Assembly (NCBI GenBank): GCA_045128835.1
Contig: JBGVRX010000017.1
Location: forward strand, 28,938 to 92,937
Direction: 5' to 3'
DNA from: Bacilli bacterium
Lineage (GTDB): Bacteria; Bacillota_I; Bacilli_A; RFN20; DUOF01
DNA length: 64,000 nucleotides
The notes beneath the pieces are model-generated. The model did no database searches, was not told where the DNA came from, and saw only the letters and a program-made list of their open reading frames with translations. Below are positions 13,334 to 63,442 of the stretch, piece by piece. The position numbers and the translations under genes were made by a program. The first letter of the stretch is position 1; every line of letters begins with the position of its first letter.

Positions 13334-13337
13334 TGTA

Positions 13338-20469: not shown

Positions 20470-20471
20470 AC

Positions 20472-33916: not shown

Positions 33917-33945
33917 TGCTTTCACTCTCCTTTCTTTAAATATAA

Positions 33946-33970
33946 GTAGGGGAAAAGTTTATTTCCCCTT
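33946..33970 (-). terminator. Hairpin AGGGGAAA-N6-TTTCCCCT between giant genes 2 and 1, overlapping the gene-2 stop and abutting the gene-1 RBS
   Basis: Perfect 8-bp stem at about 33948–33969. It is followed on the transcript by ACUUAUAUUU (a weak U-tract) and then AAAGGAGA-N9-ATG of gene 1. Confidence 0.4.
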
Positions 33971-36900
33971 AATTTTTTCTTTTGTTTATCAAACTGAACC
34001 AACAAGCACCTAAACTTGTTAAAAGTAGTCCGATAAGAACAATTATATAACTGCTATTAGGTTGTCCCGACATTTCTACAATTGGAGGTGTTGCCTCAAC
34101 AACAATTGTAAGTTTGACTGGCTCAGCCTCGATAAGTTCACTTTGCCCATCACTACCGTGGAACATGTATTGTAGTGTATAAGTAATTTCATATACACCT
34201 GGAACAGAAGTCGTAAACTCATCCCAAATATTTGCGTTATATTTCTTGTTGTCAACAACTAACTCACCATTATAATAAACAGTTTGAGTTAAGAAGTGAT
34301 TTTTGTCTCCTGCAGTTACCGCTAAGTTGTTTACGATGTTAGCAACATCTTCTCCTTGTTCAACAGTTAAACTGTAAGAATTTGGTTCTACAACATCTAT
34401 TGGTAGACTTGCATTAGCAATTTCTATTTGAGGAATTAATGATGCATAAATAACTCCTCTAGCAATATATACAGATTCATTTCCAGCTTTATCAAATACA
34501 GAATAAATGATTGTATATGTGTAATCTCCTGTGCTTAGATATGCACTTGGATCTTTCTTGATTATCGCATAAATACTATCTTCACCAACTGTTGAATCAA
34601 TTGATGTTGGAATACTTGCAGATAAATCATATGTTTGTTTTGTATTATCTTTATCAAAAGAGTAAATAATGTATCTTCTTTCTTCTGAATAAACGTTTCT
34701 AATATCTAATCCAGCGATACCACCATTCATTGCATATGGGTCACTGCCTAGTCCACCAATATCTTGTTTTACACCAGGTTTTTCTTGGCTTACATCAGCG
34801 TAACTTTCTTGATACAATGTTCCAGCCTCATTCTTTGTGCTTTCAAACAAATAGTGATTTACTAGAATTGAATGATTCTTATCAAATGTTGATGATTTAA
34901 TTTCACTACTTTCATAATTTTCAGGATATGAATCAGCAGCACCTGCATAATATTCTGTATAACCAGTATCACATATTCCCGCTGTTCTACATCCATACTC
35001 ATATACATAAAGTTTTTCACCATTATCTCTACCAAAGTTGATTATTGGACTAGTTCTATCAAGATATGCTGTACGTTTATCTTTATAGTATTTATATTGT
35101 GAAGCTACACCAATTTCTCCCTCAGCTGGCATACCATAAATTAATTGAGATATTGCTTCTGCTTTGGTTGCATCATTTTCTGAAGCCTCACTTACATTCC
35201 ATCCGATATTTGCAAGAGCAGTATTTCTATCTGCATCTCTTAATTTTTGTTCTTCCAAAGTCAATAATTCAAAATCTGCTAAATCTTTATCATATTGACT
35301 AGTATCAACAATATTATAAGTTGTCATTGTTGATGTTGTATTAGATGCTTGACCATCACCATAATACTTATCAACATAACTAACTGTAACAGATGTAGCT
35401 GAAGTAATATCAACTCCGCTATCAACTGCTTTGATTAATATTTCACGTGAACCTTCTGAGTCTAGAGCTAAGTATGACTCACCTTTTGCTCTATCATATA
35501 AGAACCATGTGATACCACCATCTCTAGAATAATAATGATTCCATTGTGAATGGTCTTTAGTGTTTTTAGTTGGGAATAACTCTTCAGTATACGAGTTATC
35601 ACTACCACCAGTTATTGTTAAATAAATACCACTTGTAGAATTGCTCCAACTGTAATGTTTCAATGCTCTTGCATTATTTCCTGCAGGAATCATAATATAT
35701 TTTCCTTGAGCAGCATCTTCAGTATAAGTATATCCTAAAGCGGCATCTGCAACTCTAGAATATTTTGTAAGCGTTGATAAGTTTGCTAATGTAGCTGCAC
35801 CTATATCAACATATGCCCCATTACCTACAGCATTACCTTCACTATCATATCTTAGTAGTACATTAACTGGAACGTATGTATTTTCAGCAACAATCCAGTT
35901 TTCTTCTTTTGTACAATCAGGAACTGTACATTTAACTCTACCGTTGTATAAGTTAACTGTTCCTACAATTGGATTTGTTGTATCCACAATGTGAAGTGTT
36001 CCCACATTCTTATAAGTTGTTTGAAGAACATCTTTTTCATCTACAACCTCGTACATATTACCGTTACTAACATTTCCAGCATTATCCATTACATAGAAGT
36101 GAACATTATAATTTCCAACTCTACTTATATCAAATTCTCCGTTAGTTCCTTGTTTCTCGATAACTATATACCAATACTTATCAAATTTCTTATCTAAAGC
36201 TTCACCATTTCTGATTTCACCTTGGTCATATGCAGTTACACCGAACCAATTAACTAAAGTAATAATAAATTCTTTCAAATTATTTGGTCCTGCATTTTTA
36301 ATGTATTCATCCTTTTGCATTGTGAACGGATAAACAAAATCATTTTCTGTAGCAGGTAAGATTCCACCACTTGTAGCAAACTCTGAATTTCCTTTACCAT
36401 ACTCTAATTCGAAGAATGCAGTAGATGTACAATCATGTTCATTTGTTTCACATTCGCTGATTAATGGCAAGTCGACTTTTATAACTGCCTCATAATTAGT
36501 TGTTTCATTTAACCAGTCAAGGATTGGATCGCCTTCAGTATTTTCAGTCTTACCAACAATACTTATTCCTGATCCACAATTCACATATGTTGTTGTGCTT
36601 TGTTCTCCTACACATTCATACATATATGTACCGATAGCATTTGCTTCAAGATAAACATCTTTTCTATTAACTTCTACTATTGGTTTTACATCATCTTCTT
36701 CAATTCTTAATGCTCCTGGATAGAAGATTACTGCATAGTTGCTATCTTCATAATCCTTATCAGCATCAGTTTTAGATTCACTAACAATACTTAATTTAGT
36801 TGAGTTTCTAACAATTGGAACATAACCAATTAAATTTGTATTAACTGTATCCTTGTGCTCGTTGTAAACTAAATCAGCACAAACATAATCATTCAATAAT

Positions 36901-39900
36901 CCATCTGATCTTAAAGTGTCATAAGCATCTGCAGAAATAATTGTATTACAGTATGCTAATTCACCAGCAAGTTTATCTCCTCTTCTTACTTGATTTGGAT
37001 GAGTACCCCAAATAATCTTGCCATAAGAATCAACACCATAAACAGCCGCCTCTCTGTCACCCGCTGGATATCCTATTCCATTGAATAAGTTGTAATCCAA
37101 ATCTATAGTATTATTTATAGTTGGAAGAGATGGAGCGTTAGTATTTTGACCTACATAATAAATTTCTAAACCTTCTGTGAAGTATGAAGTATTCACATAT
37201 AACGCAACAGATTTTTTGTTTATAGTAAGAGTTCCTGTTGCTTTAAGCATATTGTCATACTCATATGGGTTAGTTGCATCTTTAGTTCTACTTGTCGATG
37301 CATGTGATGTTGTAAATAAACTATCAGATGTCACTGCAGTTTCATCAGCATCGTTATCAAGTACTATCACAAAGTAGTTAGGGTTATATCCAAAATATGT
37401 ATCATAATAATATTTTTCAACACCTGAGGCTGGTCCAGTATAATGACTTGATGCTGGTGCCTCTGGTCTATATGCACTTTGATAATTGTTAGCAGTTATA
37501 CTATCTGTTGTATTTAAGTAACCATATAGTCTTAAATAATATGTACCTGCATCTTCACAGAAGCCATATGTATCACCAGCATATAAACAACTAGCATTCG
37601 CTGTATTTCTTTCATCACGGCTTACATATACACCAAGTTGCTCTGTGTTTTTATTTTCAGCAACGCCATAAACGCTGTAAGCTTTTTGATCTTCTGGAAC
37701 AAGTCCATTTGCAAATTTGCTATTTTGAGAATACAACTTACTATTGTTATATGTTTCTCCTTCAAATGAATAGTTATTTAGAATTGACTCTAATTTAGTC
37801 ATTCCTTCAAAATATTCAACACTGAAGTTATTTCTTAATAGTGTATTGCCTGTCATAAGAATTCCTGCTTCATTTACACACGGAGACAACATTGCCCCAT
37901 CAATAAACTCACAACTTACAACATCTGTTGTTTGACCATAAGTCTTAACAACGTTTTCAATTTGAACACCTACTGGTCTTGGAATTATTGTGAATTTGAT
38001 TCCTTCAACAAATTCTAAACCATAGTTATTAACATTCCATTCATTAACAGCAACCTTAATACCATTAACTATGTTATAAACGCCTGCAGCTTGAGACCAA
38101 CCATCAACGTACAAGTAACCTAATAAAATTCTACTTGTTTCTCCATAGCTCAATGTTCTATCTGCGTTACATCCTTCAGTTGCATCTTTACACACTGTAT
38201 CAAAATATAAACTTCCTATAACGCTACCTTGATTTACAAGTTCTTCAACATTTGCTTTTAAACCACTCTCAGCTTTACCGTAGTTTCTGATTGTTCCGTT
38301 ATTTTCTCCATATGCAAATCCAGAGATATAAACAACATCACCCTCAACAAGATAAATATAATTTCCTGTGCCTGCATCATTTTTAATAAACGTCTTTGTG
38401 GATGCATCGTAATCAAATGAATCCAATTGAACTAACGTCTTTGTTACATTGCCCGCAGATACAACTTTAATAATATTAGAATCTTTAATTGAATAATATG
38501 ATTTAGAAACTGTATATGTTGTTACAACTTGGAATGTCAATTCCTTGTCTTTTTCACCATAAACCTTATATTGTCCAGTTTGAGTTGTATCCGTAACATT
38601 GTCTTCTACAGAAACGCTATCTGGAGTTATAGTTACTTTAGCCGCTTTAATTTCATATGTCACACCTTCTGCGAAAGTAAGGACATAGTTTCCTGTTTTA
38701 TCAGCCAAATCACCAATTGTAATCTCATACACCCCAACATTTCTGTTATATCGAGTATTTTCTGTTGATAGGATTTTTCTATCCAATGCACTTCTAACGC
38801 TACTTTCAGTTTCATACACATCACCGAACACATAATGTTTGATATTAACATTTGCTAATCCAGTATTAGAACTAACTGCACCTGCATTGTATGCACTTGT
38901 AGTCATATTGCTATCTGCGCTATATTCATCTATTCTATCGTTGATATAGAAGCAAGTTCCAACATCAACGCCATTAATTGTTCCGTTATTGTAATAGTTT
39001 ATGTTATTCAAGCACACTCCAGCAGCACTACCCGCTGTTGTATCATGAACTAATCCGTAAGTTTGAATCAATCCATCTCCTGGAGTTCTAACCAAACTGT
39101 CTGTATATGTGATAGTTGGAATCAAAGTTCCGTGATAATCACCATACATAAACCCTTGTCCGCTATCTGGTGTAATAAGGATTGGTCTAGGAACAATATT
39201 AACATGTCCTATTTGATAATTAACTTTATAGTTGAATCCAGGAACTGTATTATATGCTTGCTCGATGTAAGCTAGAGTTTCATAAACACTCTTACCTTCT
39301 ACGGCAGTTGTATTACATTTTAGCACTTTAGTATAAGTAAGGCCTTCCGCATCAACTTCATCACTAGAACCATAGAAATAACCGGTCAAATTAACAGTAA
39401 CATTCGTAGATGTTCCACATGAAACATTTTCTCCAAGAACTCTCATAAATCTTACAACAAACTCTTCTTTAAACAACTCTTGGTTCAAAATTCCTGATGT
39501 TGTATATCTAGAAATATGAGTTGCACTTAGTCCATGTTTATCGTTAGGATCTTTATTAATACACTTCATGTTTTCAAAATCAAAATCTTCGCTAGGAGCA
39601 CAAACTAAGATATTGTAATTTTCCACAGCGTCCTTTTCCCCATAAGTTTTATCAAAACTAACGAACGCAATTTTAATTTGTCTTAATACGATTTCGTATT
39701 TAATTGGAGTTAGATCAACATCATCTTCTTCGGTTTCTCCATCTTCATTAACAGCCAAACCATCTTCATAATAATTAACTAAATAATTGTCATATCCATA
39801 TGTACTAGCATATTTATCATTATCTTCTGCAAAACTACCAATCAAGTGAACTGTTCCATAGAAGTCTGGGTTTTCATAAACATACTCATACAAACCTTTT

Positions 39901-42900
39901 ATATCATCAGTAGTAGGGGCCCCGCCATTCATACCTTTTCTTGAAATCTTACCAGCAAGAATATCAGTTTGAACGTCGTTTCTTCCTTCAATTCCATTCC
40001 ATGGTGCTTTTGCTAAAGAATTGTATTTAGTGTAGTATCTGGTCAATCCATACTCAACATATGTATTGTTAGCACCATCCAAATCTTTATTAGCCTCAAC
40101 TTGCTCTTGAGAACAGAATCCGTAATAAACATCTAAGTTTACAACAGTTCCGCCTTCGATTGTAACATCATCATCACCATTAACGCTTCCATCCATATTG
40201 TTGTCTCCACACAAGTAAACAACAGATAAGTTTGGATCGTTATACATATCAGCTTCACCATAAATCTTTTGATCGTACTTAGTATAAACATAAGCCTTTC
40301 TCTTTGTTATTGTAAACAACAATTCAGTTGGGAATGAACCTGCTTTAGTATAAGTTTGATCAACATCAACTGACGCATCATACGCTTTAGTTCCATAATA
40401 ATCTATATCATAGTTTTTACAAACAAATGTAAATCCAGTTCCAACTCCAGGCATATTGTTTGCATCACATGAGTTAACATAAGTTTCTTTCGCCTCATTC
40501 TTTGTTGCATCAACATCACCTAAAGTTAATATATAGTTTCCAACAACTTGGTCTTGATATTTTTTAGAAGCGCCACCAACAGATTGTTGAGCACTAATTG
40601 CCGCACTTACATATGCAGACATTTTAACTGAAGTTCTATTTGTTGCAGTGTCTTTTATTCTATATAAAGTACCATTATTTAATGCATGAGCCTTGATACC
40701 ATTTGAAACTGTTGTAGGTCTAAATGTATCATCACCTATTATTCCAGACACTTCATATGAATCGTTTGTTCCGTATTCATATCCGTTTCTAGCTATTTGA
40801 TAATCTTTATCCCCGCTTACAATATATTTATAACCTAAGTCATAATAATTTCCATCACCCTCGACACAATTGCTGTATCCAGTAGCATAATCATACGAAT
40901 AATTTGTAGCTGTATTGTTGAATGCGTTATATGCACAACCATACATTTTTGTTTGTCCTGCAGTAACTGTTATATTAAGTGTAGCAGGAGTAATATATAA
41001 CTTACCGTTTTTAATATCATATACAGGAGTTGCTACATCGACATCTTTCTCTTCTTCTACAGTTGTTTCCATATCGAATGAATAAACCCTGCTCTCCCCG
41101 GCAATAACATAGTTGTTAATTAATTTATTTGCAACAACAACGCAATCACCATAATCTCCTTTAACAACTTGTGTTGTACATGCATTATCAGCATTTACAA
41201 ATGGGTTGTTATTAATTGTCTTTATTGAACCTTTTGTTAAATCGTATGTTCCAACGTTATCTTGTAACCCATTAGCATCTGCCGCCAAGCTAACACTTCT
41301 ACTTCTTGTAGGTACACCATTGAAGTTTCCTGCAATGCTATCCATATCATCTAATCCATTTATATGGAATCCATAAATATTCTTATAACTGTTTTCAAAG
41401 TCAACAGAAGCATCTGTACAATATGATCCAAGCGCTAAACTATTAAGATTTGTACCAGGAGTTATAAACCATCCATCTAACAAACAACCGTTTGCGAATG
41501 TATCAAATGAATTGTATTCACTTCCAAGTCCATAACTTGCATAATACTTCTCACCATACTCTTTTGTATAACTAGTTATTTCAACTTCAACAGCTAGAGA
41601 TTTTATAGTTAACGCTCCACCCAAATATTTGAAGTTGTAGTTTTTCTTTTGTGCTTCAGCTATATCTGCATAAACATAATAAACTCCTGCAGGTATCGCG
41701 AAATCTTCGTCATCATAATAATCACTTGTTGTCGCAGAAACCGCTTCGTGCATTTTGAAGAATAATCCTATATTTGTCCAGCTATCTCCAGCTGTTAATC
41801 CATAACGGTAATCTCCAGTACATCCTGTTGAAGCCGCGTTATCTGGATCAAACTCTGCTCTTGCCATTGTTGTTTCATTTTGATAACACAAGAACAAGTA
41901 ATCTTCTGGATACAACTTATTAACATTTGTTGAATTGTAAGTATCATAGAAAGTTACATCTAAGTAGTTGTTTTTATAGAAGTTATATCTCTTACCATAG
42001 AAGACATTCCAACTAGCTGCATCACTAAGAGTTATTGTTTCTATCGCGCTATTGAATTCCATGATTACTTCTCTACGATAAATCTCAAATAATATTTTAT
42101 AAATCTTTTCTGGTTCTGCACCTGTATTAGCACAAGGAAGATCTTCATCTAGAGTCAAACAAGATTCATTGTTAGACTTATAAATGAAATCATTTGCAGG
42201 ATTTCCATTAGGATTGTTATCAATTGTATATCCTTCATTATTTGTGTAATAAGGATTATAAATTAAATTGTAGTTTTTACACACAATTGGTGTTCCAGAA
42301 ACATCTACTGTAACAAGATGTCCTGTTGCATCATAAGAACATTGTTCTCTTCCATTTGTCATAACCGCAATTGCAGATTGTGATCCAGTTAATGTTCCAG
42401 AAACAACATTCAAATCACTTGATAGAGTATAGTACAAATACCATCCCCCATCTTTTCCAGGCTCTCTTACTAGTTTAGCACTTCCAGCAGTTGAACCATA
42501 AGCAGCGTTTCTTAACAATTTGTAAGTTTCATTTGTTTTATAACCTACTAGTTGAACTCCATTGTGATATAAATACCAATTAGTTCTTTCTTCAGAGGAG
42601 TTAGCAGGAATCTTTGATGCTTCACTTCCTGTTGGAGTATCTTTTTCGTTTGGATCTGCAGCATAATAATCACCCTCAATTATATCAGCTGTATATCCAT
42701 TGAACTCAACAACTGTATCAGGTTCCGCTTCAATAGCAGGCACTCTTTTAATATTTCCATCTACCAAACCATATAGAATTATTTCCCAAGGATTTGGATC
42801 ATAGGTATTTGTAAAGTTATATTCTCTTCTTTGACCAGGTGCTGCTTGAACAACTAAGTCAATTGAATTAATAATATATTCTCCCTCTGTATAATTTATA

Positions 42901-46877: not shown

Positions 46878-47104
46878 ATAAACACTCCTCCCTAAGGGTA
46901 CAATCATAGACAATAACATTTTATAACAAAAGTCTCTTGCAACCAATGTTTTACGGCTTTTTTTGTCGTATTTTGTGTACAATATTTCTGTTTTTTTACA
47001 AATAGCATAAATTTCGCCATTTTTATAAACTTTTATATTATTATATAATAATATAAAATTATTGATTTAACCAAAATAATAAAAACAGCAAAAAATTACC
47101 AACA

Positions 47105-47181: not shown

Positions 47182-47182
47182 T

Positions 47183-53100: not shown

Positions 53101-56100
53101 CATTTGCTGGGTTAGAATAACTATCAGCATAAACATTGTAACTATAATATTCTACAGTGTTGCTAGATACTGTTACTTCTCTTAAAGCATCTGTATTTCC
53201 TCTAGCACCATCATAAACCTTAGATGATAATACTGCAGATGTATAAACACTAGTTGATCCACTAATTGTGTAATACTCGTAATAATTTTCACCTAAGCTA
53301 TTTTGTAACGCTTCGTTTTGAGCATCACTAATACAAGTTGTATAAATACCTGAGATATTTATTAAACAGCTTGCCTTTTGAATAATACTATATGTTGTTC
53401 CATCAATTGTAACAGTCTTAGCGTTTTGTCCACTTGTTGTTTCAACTGCAATTGTAGCAACAACAACATTACTACTCTTATTCAATACTTTTCTACCATC
53501 AATAACGTATGTTACTGAATCTAATTCAAATTCATATAAACTTGTGTATTTATCTGAAGTATTTTGAACTCTTTCGATTTTTGCTTTTTGAGTAGTTCCG
53601 TCGAACAAGTATACACCTGATCCATAAACTAAACCATTTTCTCCTGTTCCATCTCTTACTTCTGTAAATGTAATATTAGGCATTGAACCATTTTCAGTAT
53701 AGTTACCATAAATAAATCCTTGTTCAGAATCTGGAGTAATAGAAACTTCTCTTGTTTTGATTGTCATAGTTCCAGATACTTCAACGATTTCGTAGTTGTC
53801 TCCTAAAACGTTAATTGAGTAGTTAGGGCTAACTTCTACTAATTCATGTGTACAGTCTGTTACACCAGTTTGAGCAGCACACGCTGTTACTGTATATGAA
53901 CCCGCATTTTCACCATGAGTTCTTCTGAAATAAATACCAAAGCTGTTTTGTAAATCAGTAGCACCTTGGAAAATATAATCAGAATTTGTTGAAACACCAT
54001 TATTCTTTATTTGCCATTGTTTCATTGTGCCATCAGCATTAACAAATTTACTAGCATCTACTGTACTTAATCCGTGAGCATCACTTTCAGCAGTGTTGCT
54101 AGCACATTTAATATTTGTACCATCTTGAGTATAACCAAGTCCATTTGGACATATAGCTACCAAGAAATCACTATACTTATCTGCTTCACCGTATGTTTTT
54201 TCAACATCTACTGCATATAAGTAAATAGTTCTCTTTATAATTTCGAAATAAACTTCTTTAGCTGCTTCTGTAAAGAATCCTACTTCTGTTCCACTACTAT
54301 TTTTATTAGCGTCGTTATCAAGTTTCAATTCATCGTAAGGTTCTTCAAATACAGTTCTTGAAGTCCACCATTTAGCTAATTCATTTTCTCTTCCTGGAGC
54401 ATCATCATTCAAATAGAATCCAAGATACCAATAGTTGATTGGATTGCTATCAGACGCACTAGAATATTTTTTAACTAAACTTACAGATGTTGATGAACCT
54501 GCAGTATTGTAGTTTCCATCAGTTGCTTTTATTTTGTAAGTGTTATTAATTAACATCTTACCAGTTCTATTACCGTTAGAATCAATTGCATCTGCACCAC
54601 CTGTTGAAATACAGTGAGCATCACCATAGTAACAAGTAGTAAACAAGATTTCGCTTAACTTAACGTAAGAACCACCATCTTCTTTTACATATGTAGCATC
54701 TAAATCATAGTTTGTTACATATTTAATCATGTAGTTGTTACCGCTTAACGCATCGTTAGTTTTAACATCCCCAAAATCATATGTGTATTTTCCAGCTTTA
54801 TCAGATTTACGATTTGTATCTGTAGGATCAACACTTGTTGGGTCAAATTTTCTGCTTACTTTACCAGTAACAACATCAAATTGGATATCATTAAATGTTG
54901 TTCTAGTTTGTACGCCTGTATCTTCAAAATCTGTCCATGCAGTCCATGGTGCTTTTGCTAAACTGTTTGCAACAGCATAGTACATAGATACACCTAAATC
55001 CACTTGATCTGTGGCTGCGTTTTCACAATAATTTCCACTTCTTCCAGTAAAGTCTGTTAATCCATTAGCTTCTAAGATTTCTTGACATGTCATGTATTCT
55101 AAAGGATCATTCTCACCGTAAGGTTTTACGTTATATTCTGGGTGAACATAAACAATACGTGAAACGATTGTGAATTTAACTTTGTCAGTTTCTTCTCCTC
55201 TAGTAACTCCACTTCCAGAAACATTTGCACTATTTAATTCGATTTCTGAATCAACAGTTTGACTCGCACTTGTAATTAATGAGTTATAAGGAATATAACT
55301 GCCATTAACAAATACATATAAGTTTTTATTTCTATCTGTAGATGCAGTCTCTGTATACATTGCATGTCCAGTTGCATCTAATTTATATCTTGATAAAGAT
55401 GCAATTTCTGCAAATTCGTAAATTTGAACATAAGTTCCTGTTGCATCTTTTGTGTACAATCCACTAGCTTCTGAATATCTTTGAAGACTAGTTAATTGAA
55501 CATATTCATCGTTTATAAGCACATATGCTCCATTTGTATCTGCAACATATGAACTAGAGTTTAATTTAAATTTAAGGATTGTACTTAATGCTATATATTT
55601 ACTATCTCCGCTAGCACCAGTAACTTTTAAGTAATCACCAGTTTCGTTTTGAGTTGCTCCTGTAGCATCAGTATATCTATAACTTCCTAATGCAGATAAT
55701 AACACATAACCGTTTCCTATAACAGCACCTGTTCCATCCACAACACTTGAGTCTTTCAAGTAAATATAACAATCACTAGAACAAACATTTGTTCTTTCAT
55801 ATTGAGTTAATTTTTTATATTTTGTCAAACTATCAACAGATACATATTTACTAATTAAAGCATATGCTCCGCTTGGATTTGAAGTAGTTAAATCTGAATC
55901 ATATCTATCTAAATCCATTAAGTTAACAAACTTGCCATCGATTAATACATAATCTCCTGTACTTGATTCTTGATAATTAAGAGTATATAGAGTTAAATCT
56001 CCTAATGCCACATCTGTCTTATCAGTGTAAGAATGTGTATCAATATCAATAGTAGGACTGTTTCCATAGTAGTTAATATTATAGTTTCTACATGGTGATC

Positions 56101-59100
56101 CACCATTTAACGCAGGGTTATTATATGCATCACACATTGCAGAGTTAGAGTTATTAACTATATTTAATTTACCAAGCGAAATTGTATAAACACCAACTTT
56201 TTGACCTTGATATTTAGCATAGTTATCTTTAATGTAATCATAATCATAACTATTTGCTGAACTATATGTTACTCTGTATAGTCTGTCATCAGTAAGAATT
56301 GGGAAGTTGTTTGTAAATTGAGTTCCACCAGTTAAGAATACTCTTCCTCCACTTTGTGTTGTTGTAACATCATAAGTTGATCCTACTGAAGCGTAAGATT
56401 TAGCAGTATCCTTATCTCCACTAACTGTATACTTATATGCGAAATCAGCATTTCTATTATCTGATGCATCACAATTTGCATAACCAGTATCATAGTCATA
56501 AGTATAATATTCTCCTGCTTCTGTTTTGAAAATTGAATATGCACAACCATACATCTTAACTTGGTTTTCATAAACAGTAATTTCTACATCTGCAGGCAAG
56601 ATAAATAAGTATGCACCTTCATTATTGTTAATACTGTAAGTTATATCATAGTTTCTTGCATTAGCAAATGTTCCAGTTCCTGTAGTTCCATCCTCTACAA
56701 ACACACAATTTGTTTTATCAGTGTCAAGAACACCGTGAGCATCCAAGTTTGTAATACATTGTGTAAATAAAGCATTTGTATTTTGTTTTGTAGCGATATT
56801 TCCTGTCGTGATCTTATAGTATCCAACATCATCAAATACACCAACATTAGCAGCGTTCTTGCTTGCTCTAACAGGTCTTCCGTTAAAGTTTTCTGCAATT
56901 GTATCTTTAGAATCTAATCCTTCGATAACAAATCCATATTTATTACCAACAACATTATCAGTCATAGAAGTACAATCAGTAATTAACCCTGTTTTAACAT
57001 TTCCTGCATCATCTACTAAATATGAAACATCATTCATACATTGAGCTAATTTATATGAAGTATAAGCACTATAATCAGAACCTAAACCATAACTAGAATA
57101 TGTGCTTTCACCATATTCCATTGTATAACCTGTAAGTTGAATGTTAGTAACTTTAGGTTTGATTGTTAATGTACCACCACGATATGTGAATTTATAGTTT
57201 TGTTTTATTCTAGAGTTGTTCGTTGTAGCATCTGTTCCAGTAAGTTGAGCAATATCAGCGTATACATAATACGTTCCTGCTGGCAATGCTTTATCACTAG
57301 CATCATAGTAGTAACCAGAACCTTCTGATGAAACAACACTATGAAGATAGAATTTTAATCCAATTGATTGCCATGTATCACCAGAAGTGATTCCATAGTC
57401 AGCATTACTTGTACAATCTACTAGATAATCCCCTAAGTCGCTATAACACAAGAAGATATTTCCTTCTGAAGTAGTATTGTTTATATAGAATATTCCATTG
57501 CTGTTTCCATTATATTGGTAAACATTACTACTATAATTTCCACCATCATAATACTCATAACGTTCACCATAAATGAATGTATAATTTTCATCAATGAATT
57601 CAAGAATAATTTCACGTTTGAATATTTCAAATTTAATTGTTGTATTATCTGAGTTTCCACATGTCATAGAGTAGAATCCAGAGTTACATAGATTAATACC
57701 GTTTGGAGCGTAAATGTTATCATCATCTCCCTCAACAGTTTCGTAAATATCTAATGCATCATCATATGTTGGAGCATTGTCTCTATAAACGACATTATAG
57801 TTTCTGCAATCAACATTTGTTGCCCCACCACTTGTTGCAACACTATTTTCTCCAATAACACATTCTTTGTTATCGTTGTTAACTTTTCTTATTGTGTAAA
57901 CCTTAACATCTGGAGAAGCAACAACTTTAAAGTTTTTGATTTCATCATATGAATACCAAGCAACATTTTCACCAAGAGAACGGGTAACAGTAAAGTTTTC
58001 ATCGAACAATGAGTATGTTTGGTTAACTAATCTTCCTTCAACAACAACTTTCAAGTATGTACCATCGTTAGTTTGTGTTCTTGAAGAATTATATCTATCA
58101 CTATTCTTTATTTCATAATATCTACCAAATGCATAGATATAACTTCCTGTACTGCTTTCGTAATATATTTCTCCTGACTTAGCATATGTTGTTCTTCCTG
58201 TTAAGTTAATATAATCAACATATTGATAAGTAGATTCTGCAGGTGAAACTTTTCTTCTTGAGTAATAAACTTCACTTTCTGCAACCAGATTAGTGTCATA
58301 TATATATGTATATGGATCTTGTCCTAAAACTTGTTCTCTTCTATTGTTTTCTACAGAAATATTTGCAGTATAACCACTAAATGAACTTTCATCAATTTCA
58401 ATATTTGAAACCCATGCATCTGTATCATAAGTAATAGTTTCACCGTAAACCACTAATTGCCATAATGGGTCATTATATGGAGAACCCGCATATTCTTTAC
58501 CTTGATTTATACCAGGTTGAACAATTAAATCAGTCGCTTCGATTTTGAAGTCAGCTTTAATAAATGATATAGCATAGTTTCTAGTATCTCTATTTAATGT
58601 TCTTCCCGCATATTTAACGCTATCTTCACCAGATGCGTTAGTTAAATAAATGTTTCCATTTGTTCTAATTGTTAATGCTGCAACGCTTGAAGAACCATCT
58701 GTTGCATAATGATCAAATGCATAGAAGTAATATGGATGAGTTGTGTCGTAAGCAGAAGGAGTTACAACATCAGCATCTCTACATAAAGCCACCGTTAATT
58801 TAGTTGTATCACTTGGATTTCCACTAATATTACATATATCATAGATACCAACTTCTTCTCCAATTTCTCTTCTAAGAGTTCCTTCGATAATATAGTTAGA
58901 AGCATTATCAACTAATGTTGAGTCTTCATAGTTACCATTATATCTCCATCCACTTACTGTATAACCACCTAAATAACCAGTAGTAACAATATTTGTTGGA
59001 GTTGTTGTATCATTCCAGTTATTACTATAAGGATCTTGTTCACCAAAAGCCTTAGTGCTTCCATTAGCTCTTATAGTTAATACCGCTTGTCTAATAGTAT

Positions 59101-62100
59101 AGTTAACCGCACTTTCTGTATATAATCCATCATCAACTAAAACGTTATCGACAGAATTTGTAATTGTTTGAGTAGCCCCTCCAACAGAGAAGTTACTAGC
59201 AATATAATTTGTATTAATTTTTATAACATAGTCTTCATTGTAATTACTTGTTCCATCTTCTTTAATAGATAAAGTTCCCAACACTATATGGTATTGACCA
59301 ACATTATCGTTTCTAACACCTCTATCTACATCTGTAGAATTTTCATTACAATTTAGAAGTGTAGCAAAATCTGAAACCTCTGTATTTGAGTAATAGTTTG
59401 GAGCATAGCTGTTGTAACAACGGCTTTCTACTCTAGCTAATTGTCCGTCAAATACATTTCTATTAACCAACGCAGCATTTGCGTTAGTTATTGGATCTGC
59501 AGCATCAAACACATCATTAAAATCACTAATGTTATCAAATCCAGCGGAACTAACAACATTAAGGTTATATTTTACGTAAGAACCACTGTTATTTTGAGTG
59601 TATTTTTCTGTATATCTATTAGATTCTTCGATAGCTAAGCATCTCATTCCTGCTCTCAAATAAACAGTTCCTGTTTCTGTTCCCATAGCAGCGTATAAAC
59701 AAGCCGCATCACTGTAAACATATCCACTCTTAATTTCATGGTATGTTCCATCATTTAATAAATACTCACCAGAATTATTTTGAACATATTCCATGTTGTA
59801 TCTTTTAGCGCTTTCTAACTTAACATATGTATTGTTAATCTTTATGAAATAATTTCCACTTGTAGAATCCCATGCTGCGCCACTAGAAATAGCTGTATAT
59901 GTATGATAAGCATATCCTAATTCCACAGTTCCTGCCGTTCTTGTATATATATTAACATCTGTTGTATCATTTATTTTTTCATAAACATCTCTACTACAAT
60001 ATATACTTGTGAAATATTCATTAATAAATTCTTTTTCAAAGAAGTGATCTTCTAAGTTAAATGTATCGTTAGCTTTGTTTACATAAACACAGTAATCGAA
60101 TAAAGGTTCTTCTTCACCATACATTTTTTCTCCAGCCAAAGGCTCGATAAGTAATGTTCTTGGGTTAACATAATATGTAACATAAATAGTTAACACATTA
60201 TCAGCAGTTCCTGTTATTCCACTCTTATCTTCCCAGTGATCTGATATTTCAATCTTTAATTGATGATATCCGGATTTATATAAGTGAGGGAATCCTGTAG
60301 CAGCATCATTGTCGCCAATTGTCATCCAAGTTCCTCTTTCAAGGACTTGCATAACAATCTTCTCGTGATATGAATCTGAACCACTACCAAGATAATATTG
60401 TTTACCATCATCAGTCTTTATCGCATTACCTTGAAGAATCAATTCACTTGTAATGTGATTTAAGTTGTTATCTTTAATTTTATATACTTCACCAACTTTT
60501 AATTTGTAACATTTCAAAATTCTTTCTTTAACTTGAATCAAGTTATCAATTTCCAATCTACATTCAGTTGGTTCGTTAGAATAATTTAAACTGTTATCAG
60601 CGTTTTCTCCAGTCATATCAATACCAGGACTTGTTGTATCAAGAATTGTAACATTAACTGCATACAAATTAGATAAATGTCCTTCAACAGAATTGTAATC
60701 TCTAGTACTAAATACCATTTGGAAGTTTTCAACATCGTCTATGTATTTATTTATTAATTCGAAACAAGCTTGGTTTGCATCATTGCTTGCACCACTAGCA
60801 TCATTAGCATCTATTGTAACAGTACAAATTTCAGCAGCACCGCCAGCTGTTTTGAATTGAATTTTCAAATAACCCAAGAATGTTGTAGCATCTTTTTGGT
60901 TTACAAATTCAACTCCCGCATTTGCAATATATGCTGTATCTATTTGAGTATATGGTTCAGTTGTTCCACCATCATAATTTGTATATCCAACTTGTTTTAC
61001 TAGCCCTCCGCTGAAAGAAGTGAAGTTATTATTAATTATATAATTATGCAAGTTATAAGAAGTTCCAGAAGAATTTCTATTACTCTTAGAATTATATGTA
61101 GGATCACAGTAAGAACCAGCAGCAGTACTAGACTTATTTTCACTTCCTGTAGTTACATCAAAACATTGATTTGTGCTATATCCAAAGTTAACTTCATAAC
61201 GAGGATATATGTTTTGCACGCTACTTCCACTATAATATTCGATTGAATCTACGACTTTAATTTGTGCAATTTCTAAAGCATCTTGATAATTAAATATTTT
61301 TTGTCCTTTAGAGTTATAATAAATCGTTGTATAATTTGCTGTATTTTTCCAGTATTCATCATTACTTGTATCTGCATCGCTCAACAAACTATTAACATCT
61401 GGATTTACAGGATTAACCTCTCCGCCACCAATAACATAAGGATATGTATTTATACTTGTACTAGATTCATTTGTCTTTCCTGTATCAACACCCAAGTCAC
61501 TAGAAATGACTGGTGCAGTTCTATCTATAACACTAACTTCAACTTTAGGGTTCTTAGCTGAACCTTCTAGTGAATCTGTTGTATTTCCAAAGTTATCTGT
61601 AATTTTAATTCTATAACGCCCATTACTCTTGATTGTAAATGTAATTTTATTGTTTCTGTATCCAATAGTAGCGCCACCACTGTAATCCCCAGATCCGTAA
61701 TCAATATTTGAGGCAGAACACAATTTATCCAGATCTGTTCCACATGAAACGCTATTAGTAGTTAATGCCAAACTTCCTGCTGCATCATCTGTAGAAATAT
61801 CTTTAACTCTCCAGATTACAACGCCATCACCATCAAATTCATTTGGAACATTTGTATCACCATCTTGATATCCTAAAGGTTGTTTAGCAATATCTTCAAT
61901 ATTTGTTGTATCTGAACCATCTGTTCCGTTATTACCAAACACACCATTAGTTATAACTATCTTTTGGAAAACATAAACTTCAACAACTATTTGGTCATTA
62001 ACCATTTTTGTGAAATCAATTTCAAATGGCGATGTAATTGAGAACAACCAACCTTGTTTCCAGCTTCCACCATCATAAGCTCCTGTAGAAGTCATTATAT

Positions 62101-63442
62101 TTAAAGCAACTGCATTTGTATAATCCACAATTATATTAGTTTTAGAAACGTCTTCAACGTCAATAACTTCTGTATTGTAATAAGAGTTGCCAAACACATC
62201 AGTAATATAGAAAACATAGTTTCCTGAAGCATCAACCATTAATGCAATTAGATAATTCTTTGTTGGGTCCATTCCAACGTTAGCTCCAGTTGTATCATAT
62301 GTTCCAGCAGTCGCATCAACAGACCCGACTAAATGGAAGTCATAATAATAATAAACAACTTTATTAGAATTTTCTGTACCGAAGTTTATAAATGTATTTG
62401 TTCCGTAAATTGTATTGTCTTTAATACTGCTTATAACAATATCCGTTCCTGAAGTTTCATAAGCAACATCATGAATATATGCACTCTCTTTAGGAAGAGT
62501 AATTGACAATAATTTTTGTTCTGTTGTTTTAGCACCATTCTCGTAGTACACACAAATATTTTCAGTTACAGGTCTTCCTGCTGCGCTATCACTAGAATTG
62601 GTTTCACAAGCATCTTTCACAACATTTCCACTCGCATCAGTTTTGCCAACCCATGTGAATTGGTTTTCATCTAATGGTTTTGAAGAAATGAATGTAACAG
62701 AAAATCTATCTGCATACATTGGGTCAGCCCACACTTCACCGCCAGGAGTATATTCATAACCGCTGTCGTTATACAAAGCAAAGATAATTTCTTTTTGACC
62801 GTATCCCGCATTTCTAATTGTATATGCATATTGAATTGTTATAGTTCCTGGATCAGTAGCCATTGTCGCAGGGTCTGTATTCTTTTCTTCTTTTATACAC
62901 ATTAAAGAATAGTAAGAACCGCCATTAGCTTTCAATTGAGTAGATACTGATGCAGCTGACGCAAATGTTGATACACATAGTTCACTACTAGCATCTAACA
63001 CAACACCAGGAGCTAATCCTCCAAGAGTTGCATAATCAGCATCACTCAAAGAACTCCAAACACCCTCAACACTCTTTTTATATGAATCATAGTTTTTATT
63101 ACCTGAACCAGTATAACCTGTTTCGAACGCAACAATACCATTGATTTCATGATATGGGATTTTCAAAGTAACTGTTACAACATCTTTCATGCTGACACCT
63201 GTACCTTGAATATACCACGCATCATAATAAGACGAAGAACTCACTTCAACAGAATTATAAGAGTTTCCGTTTCCTTTATGATTAGATTGGTGAACGTCAT
63301 AGCTAGATATTTCAACAGCACCAACTTTCTCGCCACCAGCAAATTGGAATGCAAAAAGCACACCAAAAAACATTAGATTAAATATAAAATATTTAACCCA
63401 ATTTACGCTTGTCTTTTTTGTTTTAACATTTTTGGAACACAT
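47183..63442 (-). CDS. Giant surface protein 3 (about 5419 aa): collinear paralog of protein 2 plus extra interspersed 'RY…G-Y-(V/L)' modules, one BNR/Asp-box, C-terminal TM anchor plus KRRQKQR
   Basis: 16.3-kb ORF. Start most likely ATG at 63440–63442 (MCSKNVKTKK… signal peptide, AGAAAGGA 12 nt upstream). ATG at 63454 sits directly on the RBS. The track's 63490 start has no RBS. Anchor motifs shared with protein 2 in the same order along the full length (detailed in the findings). Confidence 0.85.
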   Translation of the reverse strand: MCSKNVKTKKTSVNWVKYFIFNLMFFGVLFAFQFAGGEKVGAVEISSYDVHQSNHKGNGNSYNSVEVSSSSYYDAWYIQGTGVSMKDVVTVTLKIPYHEINGIVAFETGYTGSGNKNYDSYKKSVEGVWSSLSDADYATLGGLAPGVVLDASSELCVSTFASAASVSTQLKANGGSYYSLMCIKEEKNTDPATMATDPGTITIQYAYTIRNAGYGQKEIIFALYNDSGYEYTPGGEVWADPMYADRFSVTFISSKPLDENQFTWVGKTDASGNVVKDACETNSSDSAAGRPVTENICVYYENGAKTTEQKLLSITLPKESAYIHDVAYETSGTDIVISSIKDNTIYGTNTFINFGTENSNKVVYYYYDFHLVGSVDATAGTYDTTGANVGMDPTKNYLIALMVDASGNYVFYITDVFGNSYYNTEVIDVEDVSKTNIIVDYTNAVALNIMTSTGAYDGGSWKQGWLFSITSPFEIDFTKMVNDQIVVEVYVFQKIVITNGVFGNNGTDGSDTTNIEDIAKQPLGYQDGDTNVPNEFDGDGVVIWRVKDISTDDAAGSLALTTNSVSCGTDLDKLCSASNIDYGSGDYSGGATIGYRNNKITFTIKSNGRYRIKITDNFGNTTDSLEGSAKNPKVEVSVIDRTAPVISSDLGVDTGKTNESSTSINTYPYVIGGGEVNPVNPDVNSLLSDADTSNDEYWKNTANYTTIYYNSKGQKIFNYQDALEIAQIKVVDSIEYYSGSSVQNIYPRYEVNFGYSTNQCFDVTTGSENKSSTAAGSYCDPTYNSKSNRNSSGTSYNLHNYIINNNFTSFSGGLVKQVGYTNYDGGTTEPYTQIDTAYIANAGVEFVNQKDATTFLGYLKIQFKTAGGAAEICTVTIDANDASGASNDANQACFELINKYIDDVENFQMVFSTRDYNSVEGHLSNLYAVNVTILDTTSPGIDMTGENADNSLNYSNEPTECRLEIDNLIQVKERILKCYKLKVGEVYKIKDNNLNHITSELILQGNAIKTDDGKQYYLGSGSDSYHEKIVMQVLERGTWMTIGDNDAATGFPHLYKSGYHQLKIEISDHWEDKSGITGTADNVLTIYVTYYVNPRTLLIEPLAGEKMYGEEEPLFDYCVYVNKANDTFNLEDHFFEKEFINEYFTSIYCSRDVYEKINDTTDVNIYTRTAGTVELGYAYHTYTAISSGAAWDSTSGNYFIKINNTYVKLESAKRYNMEYVQNNSGEYLLNDGTYHEIKSGYVYSDAACLYAAMGTETGTVYLRAGMRCLAIEESNRYTEKYTQNNSGSYVKYNLNVVSSAGFDNISDFNDVFDAADPITNANAALVNRNVFDGQLARVESRCYNSYAPNYYSNTEVSDFATLLNCNENSTDVDRGVRNDNVGQYHIVLGTLSIKEDGTSNYNEDYVIKINTNYIASNFSVGGATQTITNSVDNVLVDDGLYTESAVNYTIRQAVLTIRANGSTKAFGEQDPYSNNWNDTTTPTNIVTTGYLGGYTVSGWRYNGNYEDSTLVDNASNYIIEGTLRREIGEEVGIYDICNISGNPSDTTKLTVALCRDADVVTPSAYDTTHPYYFYAFDHYATDGSSSVAALTIRTNGNIYLTNASGEDSVKYAGRTLNRDTRNYAISFIKADFKIEATDLIVQPGINQGKEYAGSPYNDPLWQLVVYGETITYDTDAWVSNIEIDESSFSGYTANISVENNRREQVLGQDPYTYIYDTNLVAESEVYYSRRKVSPAESTYQYVDYINLTGRTTYAKSGEIYYESSTGSYIYAFGRYYEIKNSDRYNSSRTQTNDGTYLKVVVEGRLVNQTYSLFDENFTVTRSLGENVAWYSYDEIKNFKVVASPDVKVYTIRKVNNDNKECVIGENSVATSGGATNVDCRNYNVVYRDNAPTYDDALDIYETVEGDDDNIYAPNGINLCNSGFYSMTCGNSDNTTIKFEIFKREIILEFIDENYTFIYGERYEYYDGGNYSSNVYQYNGNSNGIFYINNTTSEGNIFLCYSDLGDYLVDCTSNADYGITSGDTWQSIGLKFYLHSVVSSEGSGYYYDASDKALPAGTYYVYADIAQLTGTDATTNNSRIKQNYKFTYRGGTLTIKPKVTNIQLTGYTMEYGESTYSSYGLGSDYSAYTSYKLAQCMNDVSYLVDDAGNVKTGLITDCTSMTDNVVGNKYGFVIEGLDSKDTIAENFNGRPVRASKNAANVGVFDDVGYYKITTGNIATKQNTNALFTQCITNLDAHGVLDTDKTNCVFVEDGTTGTGTFANARNYDITYSINNNEGAYLFILPADVEITVYENQVKMYGCAYSIFKTEAGEYYTYDYDTGYANCDASDNRNADFAYKYTVSGDKDTAKSYASVGSTYDVTTTQSGGRVFLTGGTQFTNNFPILTDDRLYRVTYSSANSYDYDYIKDNYAKYQGQKVGVYTISLGKLNIVNNSNSAMCDAYNNPALNGGSPCRNYNINYYGNSPTIDIDTHSYTDKTDVALGDLTLYTLNYQESSTGDYVLIDGKFVNLMDLDRYDSDLTTSNPSGAYALISKYVSVDSLTKYKKLTQYERTNVCSSDCYIYLKDSSVVDGTGAVIGNGYVLLSALGSYRYTDATGATQNETGDYLKVTGASGDSKYIALSTILKFKLNSSSYVADTNGAYVLINDEYVQLTSLQRYSEASGLYTKDATGTYVQIYEFAEIASLSRYKLDATGHAMYTETASTDRNKNLYVFVNGSYIPYNSLITSASQTVDSEIELNSANVSGSGVTRGEETDKVKFTIVSRIVYVHPEYNVKPYGENDPLEYMTCQEILEANGLTDFTGRSGNYCENAATDQVDLGVSMYYAVANSLAKAPWTAWTDFEDTGVQTRTTFNDIQFDVVTGKVSRKFDPTSVDPTDTNRKSDKAGKYTYDFGDVKTNDALSGNNYMIKYVTNYDLDATYVKEDGGSYVKLSEILFTTCYYGDAHCISTGGADAIDSNGNRTGKMLINNTYKIKATDGNYNTAGSSTSVSLVKKYSSASDSNPINYWYLGFYLNDDAPGRENELAKWWTSRTVFEEPYDELKLDNDANKNSSGTEVGFFTEAAKEVYFEIIKRTIYLYAVDVEKTYGEADKYSDFLVAICPNGLGYTQDGTNIKCASNTAESDAHGLSTVDASKFVNADGTMKQWQIKNNGVSTNSDYIFQGATDLQNSFGIYFRRTHGENAGSYTVTACAAQTGVTDCTHELVEVSPNYSINVLGDNYEIVEVSGTMTIKTREVSITPDSEQGFIYGNYTENGSMPNITFTEVRDGTGENGLVYGSGVYLFDGTTQKAKIERVQNTSDKYTSLYEFELDSVTYVIDGRKVLNKSSNVVVATIAVETTSGQNAKTVTIDGTTYSIIQKASCLINISGIYTTCISDAQNEALQNSLGENYYEYYTISGSTSVYTSAVLSSKVYDGARGNTDALREVTVSSNTVEYYSYNVYADSYSNPANEHTRKETNTVSNTLTENARNALNLKCGNTAGLRYSRDVCDYSIVSGELVAGTVLIEKETTFYIYVTNSKRYSYDAGSGEYSQSDAGTYVKYGNNLYAQIIESNMVSYVCESDGTKLVCQYKKDETAGATNNYLKVVKTSNNYRIKSVDETVVFSISAADITVTPIEKQYKIYGEADIEIKFDVETTYVVARTQYQNFANSNIVKICNGGTCYEGTALNAYRYGAIGATTANASGDYILLTKGWTVVLDSYAYDEENQANKSADLDYGVNRTKYKHEMTKDADDNDVIAEEALTHATTGLKHYDKYTTYNSTITTSRILIGNLYVENYDQTVGEKNIVNGLTVGLNKLAGDGNVGAKNYNLTFFTKWFVIVPRPVNVEIENITKIYGQATDADSFDNKYATEKIVGDGILIKDTGADDVLDPNEDVNNSLLINNFNVIDKGLADAIANATVSSGVLKAIVETAHYNDDAGTGGIEVVYMSATDDYSKMNMPTARSIALGSGTTYYNYVTVDVGHYYTATLDASTSKGLIERKNDTLNIKVQRGEYNIARNTSTCLADDSMLCEDVGEYYLSFTTRNAAQTKESTVENAYNNKYWGYNKNYYVIIYNNFEDSNWSSDEINNQSYQSISANTNIYYSSIIDEEGTRTYGSVAYTDDANPKASATLKIRKRAIEIVVETISEYQYEQNNNGTHLRVGTNVDDYKYYLITDTNRYIKNASGKYVQKSDGTYLCSYATANTDSNCYEIVSANRFDAYAKAVGEKYAIEENTDVPALVTVTNSKDVHHTTYDDVNYESITWYHHPLQVRTADQLTGTVAYCQETLTLGNGIGALNTLRALQTCGDSLHYYDANINDESKSNFFDTSEAGYYIITREKQKLYITNEDLTIATEADKWQYEYNNYTTTFVNGILQIDIDETPPVINIETDFIIKETNSGYMSKDAIPAADDVLGFLDALRTNGCASLISTRTEDGSTNVASTCDSGVIFTYEDSTNQPGGETPSVQYNSMKTILQWFGLSSFDPGIMRAGNPSGKRYHPRWYMAIQGDFNQKKVGDYSIFIYVQDDSGNISLASMVTLRLVDETAPTVGTLNLYNAKVSCISATNCGVEDNWVVAEDVYLPINTLTKENLDNMKAADKANKYSFSGKTLVGGVYVSTYTPNQYFGTYYKITAGTSAKAVKHTGWSNTSAGIYMTITGGDDNSLAYLDTSGYTKYNVAGTTITTSASGTHLLLGSFVNVANLTKYRAVGLDVNGDEVDDIDDAESIVYLPDKTGTIIRYKGYYFDLRSGSYIDGTPSAEHAVKLYSHTGTTYTEASSMPETIPEGTTYYLRDGDMYEIPSEKYNASGQHDSTGTYVNFQQWNHYYSRDGGNSWIKYDRDTTSGYLALGQDGQRLIMIKAIDNGYTFAEAEVDKDHVIDAYCKTVGNMTCQIWNNIAVGGVTIKDDSGTAISYKEYAGSKVWKYNISAWEDYSDDGNRDRKYAYLDTIIPNTTLSDQFIEVFEYGCADISKCSVNHVEMFGTAIDGYLFKLDKLIKYNNAGQVTDGGDYVRVGNELILVESLRRFNIDPTTKVITQSNSGAYIYLGKTDSVTAIDTLISEKVADRIAGDINVYNQYTKAQATFTVATSVTGSEEVAEKLQNNTNKLQSGVGLGDILYDASSNPIGADLFSGVGNEERTFGVTIDGATVSDAQIADKYTNIFVYADIRGGTGAVEGNPYYSQQGYYKFVISYSDSDSGYKVYGCYLSSTVPTEFTWCSEGSSNYSVSTLTFTNTREAMNSLLSVYAETSAGNPENRYNFKGNELTFTLDYRVYDIAGNVSVYERKGILFSGFTRTIGVANPTGVALMSYAIDVGQNTNVASALSDFEITTTTGKSLRNNERILQTVYYNGILVSSRKAYDLSMFEDLDTTVPGVYRIVYSIERKDGMAYVVGNSVELTVTVKPDVAIVSTNNINYINIILVSGSVITVGLAMLFVELKRRQKQR
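49013..49036 (-). other. BNR/Asp-box motif (S-R-D-G-G-N-S-W) inside giant protein 3
   Basis: Codons tca aga gat ggt gga … read directly from the sequence. The frame was checked against the ORF. It occurs in the conserved context QQWNHYYSRDGGNSWIKYDR, shared with protein 2. Confidence 0.6.
55301..55993 (-). repeat. Densest cluster of the protein-3-specific short module (…L-x-x-L-x-R-Y-x-x-x-x-x-G-x-Y-(V/L)-(K/Q)-(V/I)…), approx. aa 2500–2730
   Basis: FVNLMDLDRYDSDLTTSNPSGAYALI; YVLLSALGSYRYTDATGATQNETGDYLKV; YVQLTSLQRYSEASGLYTKDATGTYVQI; EIASLSRYKLDATGHAMY. The coordinate mapping was checked against the DNA at several points. Confidence 0.45.

Follow-up and report, generated by a model that had tools for sequence, protein, structure and literature searches.

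Two genes of giant size lie side by side in a stretch of 64,000 nucleotides (nt) from an uncultured Bacilli bacterium (contig JBGVRX010000017.1 of assembly GCA_045128835.1, positions 28,938 to 92,937; hereafter, the window), and their proteins carry the same motifs in the same order at low sequence identity. This raises the question of whether the pair diverged under a pressure to vary, as in antigenic or adhesive variation, or represents two old and distinct products that are each conserved. The two genes, G2 and G3, together with a third, G1, are very long minus-strand open reading frames (ORFs) that fill the last 38 kb of the window, with G2 and G3 arranged head to tail on the same strand, 200 nt apart. 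A preliminary description of the window had called G2 and G3 collinear tandem paralogs of old origin and had attributed their divergence to diversifying selection. Our analysis bears out the former part but not the latter. In our assessment, with a probability of about 0.7, G2 and G3 are an ancient, vertically kept pair of A-type and B-type giant anchored surface proteins under purifying selection and not a variation system.

Collinearity, family and age of the pair

Comparison of the two proteins by BLASTP yielded 11 high-scoring segment pairs, all collinear and none off-diagonal, that extended over G2 amino acids (aa) 201-4336 and G3 aa 213-5433, with E-values of 3e-8 to 8e-64 and identities of 26-33%, plus one 44-aa block at 61%. 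Identity was 34% in a global MAFFT alignment (1329 identities in 3917 aligned columns) and 30% when weighted over the BLASTP segments, so that the 35-45% given earlier was somewhat too high. All 13 of the sequence anchors tested occurred a single time in each protein, in identical order, and were absent from G1. Likewise, 19 of the 22 exact 6-mers common to G2 and G3 fell into one collinear chain, with about 2 expected after shuffling. The extra length of G3 stems mainly from seven insertions of 53-141 aa. Internal BLAST repeats were absent from G2 and limited to two weak ones in G3, and Tandem Repeats Finder returned nothing meaningful over 33.9-64 kb. The similarity is thus not that of a generic repeat consensus.

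At the DNA level, the codon-aligned genes were 50% identical, and their longest common exact word was 20 nt. Four-fold degenerate sites at identical residues agreed in 49.7% of cases, compared with 46.5% predicted from composition. Synonymous sites between G2 and G3 are saturated, and dN/dS between the two is therefore not estimable. Because four-fold sites are no more alike than composition predicts, the duplication is old and recombination between the copies is implausible; the earlier statement that this DNA is past homologous recombination was reasonable, and a recent amplification does not fit. Cys (64%), Tyr (53%), Gly (51%), and Trp (48%) are retained in both paralogs far more often than Lys, Glu, and Ser (~22%), a pattern typical of folds that are conserved while their surfaces drift.

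As a side observation, many of the G3-specific insertions contain a motif of ~22-25 aa, G-x-Y-[VL]-x-[IV]...Y-V-x-L...L-x-[RK]-Y, which was counted five times in G3 and not at all in G2, with 0.3 occurrences expected by chance. The motif resembles a beta-hairpin repeat and has no match to a Pfam family; by eye, similar motif arrays are present elsewhere along the A-type orthologs P0009 and P0011.

Neither Pfam nor NCBIfam recognized a domain in G2 or G3. An HMMER search of 1.84 billion cluster representatives with a profile built from the two proteins gave only 24 strong matches (E < 1e-30), all of them either 4,100-5,600 aa long or fragments of proteins of that size; in the full-length members, the matched segment sits at the same relative position, and length is kept within each clade. 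All-against-all comparison and a neighbor-joining tree based on 721 well-occupied columns resolved three clades, each with 100% bootstrap support: clade A with G2 and relatives at 40-70% identity, clade B with G3 and relatives at 34-59% identity in two sub-clades, and clade C with four members (P0019-P0022), which is placed nearer to A. Identity between A and B was 27-31% in every pairing. A word-indexed protein search found no match to a G2 fragment and only a 154-aa scrap for the motif alignment, a result that is uninformative as the index evidently lacks giant proteins. Scans of genomes with core-derived patterns and of Joint Genome Institute (JGI) metagenomes gave no match.

Scanning 185,579 species-representative genomes for the motif QW[DN]HY[YF]SRD identified two metagenome-assembled genomes (MAGs), fecal_MAG_421 and a Hadza MAG, each with two motif matches ~13 kb apart on the same strand. 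Both loci hold a B-type, an A-type, and a G1-type gene in exactly the order of the window. For each of the three genes, fecal_MAG_421 is nearer to the window than the Hadza MAG is (G1, 58 versus 51%; G2, ~50 versus ~43%; G3, 42 versus 35%), and such congruent branching is the pattern expected if the whole array was inherited vertically. Five more contigs, reached through relatives of TypA, carry an A-type gene, a G1-type gene, and typA; in contig L010, two small genes stand between the G1-type gene and typA. Orthologs of G1 were present in the matching position in L004-L007, L009, L010, L013, and L015.

A sister lineage, represented by contigs L011 and L012 (TypA 82-84% identical), has no giant genes upstream of typA, and its genes downstream of typA match those of the window. 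Since the array is absent from this next lineage out, it is specific to a genus-level group, and the A/B duplication is older than the radiation of that group. Each of clades A and B holds orthologs of several species, and synteny and branching agree, so that the old age claimed for the duplication stands and each paralog has its own line of descent. In L011 and L012, spoIVA, a 650-aa ORF, and a TraG/DUF87-type ATPase instead fill the region upstream of typA (3400-9900), and spoIVA hints at a lineage that forms spores. A further local difference was noted in L009, where a DUF6088/AbiEii toxin-antitoxin-like pair (11909-13439) lies directly downstream of typA; the window has none.

Selection and sequence variation

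Selection at the DNA level was measured only on the last 430 aa of G2 (~10% of the protein) and on G1; dS refers to this C-terminal segment of G2, and the neighbors are the flanking genes of each contig, up to seven, pooled. For L006, L015, and L013, at dS values of 0.03, 0.16, and 0.66, respectively, dN/dS was 0.033, 0.038, and 0.081 for the G2 segment, 0.089, 0.044, and 0.059 for G1, and 0.032, 0.035, and 0.124 for the pooled neighbors. In these three close comparisons, the G2 segment contained no gaps and G1 at most one gapped position, while the G2 C-terminus and G1 differed by 0.2-1.4% among close strains.

The preliminary description had proposed examining related strains for hypervariability in copy number or sequence. 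Copy number (one A-type and one B-type gene) and gene order turned out to be the same in every related genome read, and in two strains of the Hadza-MAG species, the A- and B-type proteins were 97.5-99.2% identical over 2,700-4,100 aa, with no more than two gap positions. Identity between orthologs is nearly even along the protein; the N-terminal third is 2-7 points lower, and no hypervariable block was seen. At G2 and G3, we found no recombination tracts, silent cassettes, tandem repeats, or convincing invertible promoter, and the inverted repeats around the two genes are short and at chance level only. One of these, a 13-nt inverted repeat (46973-46985/47376-47388), was considered as an inverton and rejected: one of its arms falls within the coding region of G3, the putative -10 element is outside the flanked segment, and repeats of this length are expected by chance in AT-rich DNA.

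Judging the speed of divergence depends on the gene chosen for comparison. Relative to L007, whose TypA is 98% identical, SecA shares 75%, a helicase 67%, the M23 peptidase 78%, and two unannotated ORFs ~45% identity; the corresponding values for G1 and the G2 C-terminus are 68% and 53%. Giant genes therefore change no faster than some of their neighbors. The pairing of 97% identity in TypA with 50% in G2, observed for fecal_MAG_421, was considered as a sign of extraordinarily fast evolution of G2 and dismissed, as the controls show an exceptional degree of conservation in TypA (97-98% identity, compared with 75% for SecA; dN/dS 0.005-0.03). TypA is a poor yardstick for genome divergence in this group, where 97% identity badly understates how far genomes have diverged. 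Separately, we noted that the two unannotated ORFs, of 361 and 257 aa and located downstream of the M23 peptidase gene, are 39-49% identical where SecA is 75%, and have weak matches to the pilin-like conjugal-transfer families Mbov_0395 (window) and T4SS_pilin (L009).

Architecture, expression and the readings of the locus

Both proteins are laid out in the same way (Table 1). In the G2 core, each module is marked by the motifs K-x-YG, R-x-x-GE-x-VG-x-Y-x-I, and N-Y-x-I together with family-specific insertions, a pattern that recurs about 12 times in conserved columns of a 24-sequence family alignment (G2 aa ~1010-3430). The relationship to MBG domains was approached in several ways. The weaker matches of the G2/G3 profile were to proteins matched 8-33 times each; six of these were scanned, and five proved to be Pfam MBG_2 (YGX-type) arrays. 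In a sliding-window hhalign comparison against a profile of 344 MBG domains, probabilities of 66-94% were reached only in G2 aa 1020-3430, with the signature motifs paired. MAFFT aligned module 2 of G2 and G3 with the Pfam-recognized MBG_2 domains of G1; in this alignment, one insertion follows the YG motif, and another, of ~85 aa, precedes the NY motif. An ortholog, P0010, had a sub-threshold MBG_2 match (18.1 bits) at the equivalent place, whereas a local hidden Markov model built from the 344 domains detected nothing in G2 or G3 at a domain E-value of 1 or below, so that profile-profile comparison alone reveals the resemblance. Taken together, profile and motif evidence points to a putative MBG-like fold for the core. 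A phmmer search of G2 against PDB sequences gave one chance-level match only.

Farther along, hhalign matched the G2 C-terminal region to the G1 Ig-like profile at 87-89% (aa 3606-3641 and 4155-4171), and sub-threshold Big_3_2 matches were also present. This region contains the most conserved motif of the family, SQWNHYYSRDGG (aa 3812-3823), which is kept across all clades. No LPXTG-type motif was found in the last 60 aa of G2 or G3. The opposite, N-terminal region of G2 is the part most diverged from G3 (26% identity versus 34% in the core), and no MBG or Ig-like profile match was obtained for G2 aa 80-1009.

Table 1. Positions of the giant genes, their parts, and neighboring features in the window
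Feature	Position	Strand	Remarks
Fourth surface-protein gene, 3' end	63650..64000	minus	Cut by window edge; Ig-like 'GNYDIYVRVVDQSG' motif and C-terminal transmembrane helix
G3, B-type giant surface protein gene	47183..63442	minus	ORF to 63490 (5435 aa); probable ATG at 63442 (5419 aa)
G3 signal-peptide-like N-terminus	63317..63442	minus	aa 17-58; Lys-rich n-region, then hydrophobic YFIFNLMFFGVLFAFQF; read by eye
G3 core	50374..60166	minus	aa ~1109-4373; collinear with G2 core, longer through insertions; by coordinate mapping
G3 insertions examined for the motif	59546-59968, 55835-56005, 55325-55600, 52727-52957, 50918-51076, 49199-49522		aa 1175-1315, 2496-2552, 2631-2722, 3512-3588, 4139-4191, 4657-4764
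G3 C-terminal transmembrane helix	47213..47275	minus	YINIILVSGSVITVGLAMLFV, then basic tail ELKRRQKQR
Two terminator-like hairpins directly after G3 stop	47109..47186	minus	Hairpin 47135-47109 with T run; inverted repeat I2 47138-47186
Non-coding G2 leader, ~115 nt	46878..46990	minus	TGTACA palindrome, TGTTATAAAAT, ribosome-binding site
G2, A-type giant surface protein gene	33969..46877	minus	ORF to 46982 (4337 aa); probable ATG at 46877 (4302 aa)
G2 signal-peptide-like N-terminus	46746..46877	minus	aa 36-79; Lys-rich n-region, hydrophobic MFFFGFVLILAFMFLF, then KINA; read by eye
G2 N-terminal region, presumed membrane-distal	43956..46745	minus	aa 80-1009; 26% identity to G3
G2 core	36695..43955	minus	aa ~1010-3430; ~12 MBG(YGX)-like modules of ~170-210 aa each
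G2 C-terminal region	34115..36694	minus	aa ~3431-4290; Ig-like domains by profile comparison
Family's most conserved motif in G2	35514-35549		aa 3812-3823
G2 C-terminal transmembrane helix	33987..34049	minus	YIIVLIGLLLTSLGACWFSLI, then basic tail NKRKN
G1, third giant surface protein gene of the conserved array	25403..33925	minus	2840 aa
G1 C-terminus	25403-25540		Transmembrane helix, basic stretch, poly-Glu tail
typA	23449-25260		
361-aa and 257-aa unannotated ORFs	19696-21557		Downstream of M23 peptidase gene

The start of G3 was chosen by aligning the N-termini of orthologs and is the same as the end coordinate in the preliminary description. For G2, the probable ATG is preceded by GGGAGGAG, and both start codon and ribosome-binding site are kept in three species. 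Its leader, in which TGTTATAAAAT reads as an extended -10 element, is almost invariant in three species (L002 ~12560-12680, L003 ~12600-12720), although the proteins are only 43-50% identical. No Rfam family matches this leader, and it shows no folding signal beyond that of shuffled sequence, so that it is probably a promoter plus a regulator-binding site. It bears no similarity to the leader of G3. Because the hairpins end G3 and G2 has its own conserved leader, the two genes are probably transcribed and regulated separately. The gap between G2 and G1 is only 43 nt, and G2 and G1 may therefore be co-transcribed, with G3 separate.

By sequence comparison, G1 is not a paralog of G2 or G3, as BLASTP gave a single marginal 63-aa match with G2 and none with G3. 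It contains seven Bact_surface_Ig-like domains, MBG_2, and HYR, plus a transmembrane anchor. Its C-terminus ends in a poly-Glu cytoplasmic tail, KRRKKEEEEEEEEEIIYEDM, which was also observed in the L010 ortholog (KKRKKEEEEDEEEETIVDDY, L010 ~7560-7700), whereas the tails of G2 and G3 are short and basic only. A fourth surface-protein gene ends just upstream of G3, and the giant-gene array therefore extends past the window, with at least four surface-protein genes of the giant kind in tandem. Downstream of the array are ordinary chromosomal genes (typA, M23 peptidase, secA, prfB, uvrB) at ~31% GC. The closest named relatives are human fecal MAGs labeled 'Bacilli bacterium'. An identical TypA sequence was present only in a 229-kb NCBI contig and a Logan contig, and an exact look-up of G2 returned no contig.

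These features can be combined into a proposed history and mechanism. G2 and G3 would represent the A and B types of a giant surface protein family (4,100-5,600 aa) that is restricted to one lineage and whose ancestral gene, with ~12 distinct modules already present, would have duplicated in tandem before the genus-level radiation of an uncultured, low-GC, spore-forming group of gut Bacilli. Both copies would since have been inherited vertically in a fixed array of B-type, A-type, G1-type, and typA, and purifying selection on both fits two non-redundant products. Each protein would be exported by the Sec pathway through its N-terminal signal peptide and retained in the membrane by a single C-terminal transmembrane helix and basic tail, without a sortase motif. 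The predicted ectodomain is a long fiber, with Ig-like domains near the membrane followed by a stalk of ~12 insertion-expanded MBG(YGX)-like modules, and the unique N-terminal region of ~930-1,050 aa would form the distal end and carry specificity. As the paralogs differ most in this distal region, it is the likeliest site of different binding specificities, and the pair has probably subfunctionalized.

Several points weigh against this conserved-pair reading. Between species, divergence of the giant genes runs at about twice the rate of SecA (dN 0.39 versus 0.17), the B-type diverges faster than the A-type, and, given the limited scope of the tests, positive selection may act on single sites elsewhere in G2 or G3. 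The adhesive function is one that we infer by analogy, and the N-terminal ~930-1,050 aa of G2 and G3, the presumed seat of specificity, have no match in Pfam, NCBIfam, or PDB sequences. Signal peptides and transmembrane helices were assigned by eye. As to the fold, G2 and G3 do not reach the Pfam gathering threshold of PF18676 (25 bits) and have no MBG_2 match, and AlphaFold2 confidence (predicted local distance difference test, pLDDT) was low, at 26 for G2 aa 1461-2208 with G3 as the sole homolog and 42 for module 2 aligned to the window's own MBG domains.

The rapid divergence is also what makes diversifying selection attractive, whereby the pair is driven apart and fast turnover of the cell surface allows escape from host immunity or phages, as the preliminary description held. 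Surface-exposed proteins do outpace core genes here (G2 C-terminus, 52-53%, and G1, 64-68%, versus SecA, 75%, and TypA, 97-98%), B-type divergence is faster still, the paralogs differ most in the presumed distal N-terminus, and charged or polar surface residues are poorly conserved. However, dN/dS at unsaturated divergence (0.03-0.09) is no higher than that of the neighbors (0.03-0.12) and is accompanied by no indels; full-length proteins within a species are nearly identical, none of the related genomes read departs from the common copy number and order, and divergence runs evenly along a protein devoid of repeats, cassettes, or convincing invertons. Moreover, the 361-aa and 257-aa ORFs nearby diverge equally fast or faster. 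We therefore regard diversifying selection as improbable and find no support for antigenic or adhesive variation at this locus. An artefact of generic repeat or domain composition in two unrelated Ig/MBG-rich proteins, or a recent amplification, has next to nothing in its favor. Tyr, Asn, Thr, and Gly abound in both proteins, and MBG-like motifs recur ~12 times, but the matches are strictly collinear, with anchors that occur once in each protein, and G1, for all its canonical MBG and Ig-like domains, shows only the one marginal match to G2. Saturation of synonymous sites and the separate orthologs of each paralog rule out a recent amplification.

A different view of function is that the proteins bind nothing and serve as a steric shield or envelope scaffold. 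They would form a long brush that holds off phages, host factors, or other cells, or that covers shorter adhesins. Their topology is like that of Ebh, whose shielding depends on size (PMC6548404); at least four such genes stand in tandem, their length is kept within each clade, and searches of Pfam, NCBIfam, and PDB sequences found no recognizable adhesive domain. Yet a passive spacer would tolerate expansion and contraction of repeats and would have no need of ~12 modules that are each conserved and cannot stand in for one another, or of position-specific motifs like SQWNHYYSRDGG in all clades. Purifying selection is also as strong as in the neighbors, and we consider a pure shield unlikely, if less so than diversifying selection. 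Slightly better placed, although still doubtful, is the idea of an undescribed class of fiber confined to one genus, in which an obligatory A/B pair cooperates, for example as a two-fiber attachment organelle with distinct tips that is switched on via the 115-nt leader. If true, the cooperating pair would be a colonization device without a studied counterpart.

With the conserved A/B pair as the preferred reading, the question moves from how these genes vary to what role two distinct, conserved giant fibers may play. The two surface-protein genes take up about 30 kb of the window (~38 kb when G1 is counted), and G2 and G3, which domain libraries do not recognize, come from a human-gut lineage that is uncultured and known through metagenomes alone. 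More generally, low identity between tandem surface paralogs is, on its own, no evidence for diversifying selection. In addition, a putative divergent, insertion-bearing form of the MBG module was identified that current Pfam models miss.

Comparison with known systems

Tandem paralogous surface-protein genes are also a feature of established variation systems such as Mycoplasma vsp/vlp, Borrelia vls, and Neisseria pilS. Those systems depend on shared recombination tracts, silent cassettes, or invertible or slippage-prone promoters, and they vary between strains. The tandem arrangement is what G2 and G3 have in common with them; recombination tracts, cassettes, an invertible promoter, and strain variation were not found.

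Ebh of Staphylococcus aureus is a highly repetitive protein made of alpha-helical FIVAR/GA modules. A signal directs its secretion, and transmembrane and cytoplasmic domains at the C-terminus anchor it; steric shielding has been shown for Ebh, SraP, and SasG in S. aureus, with an Ebh effect that is size-dependent (PMC6548404). Ebh (~1.1 MDa) and G2/G3 are alike in being giant, in having a Sec signal, and in C-terminal membrane anchoring rather than attachment by sortase. In contrast, no sequence similarity to Ebh was found, and G2 and G3 are non-repetitive, predicted to be beta-rich, and present as a conserved paralog pair.

Fibrillar adhesin-like proteins of Gram-positive bacteria are recognized as long, multidomain extracellular proteins whose stalk consists of tandem domains and whose anchor is C-terminal, so that the functional region is expected at the N-terminus (Monzon et al. 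2021, PMC8286594). G2 and G3 resemble fibrillar adhesins in predicted export, length, a stalk of putative beta-rich domains, and a C-terminal anchor. They differ in that no known adhesive domain was found, in having a transmembrane helix and not LPXTG as the anchor, and in a stalk that is not built of near-identical repeats.

A further likeness is to proteins with MBG domains of the YGX type (PF18676), such as G1 itself and arrays with type IX secretion system (T9SS) tails from Bacteroidota (P0026, P0029, P0037). G2 and G3 have the same three motifs in the same order (K-x-YG-x-x-D/P, R-x-x-GE-x-VG-x-Y-x-I, and N-Y-x-I-x-Y/F), and in both groups, tandem modules are built into a large secreted protein. 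However, the modules of G2 and G3 measure ~170-210 aa instead of 72, through insertions after YG and before NY, and are too diverged among themselves to be detected as repeats by BLAST; a fold in common with MBG is suggested by the profiles. Overall, giant anchored surface fibers are a well-known kind of system; the family itself is rare and unannotated, and its modules are predicted to be an unusual, expanded form of MBG.

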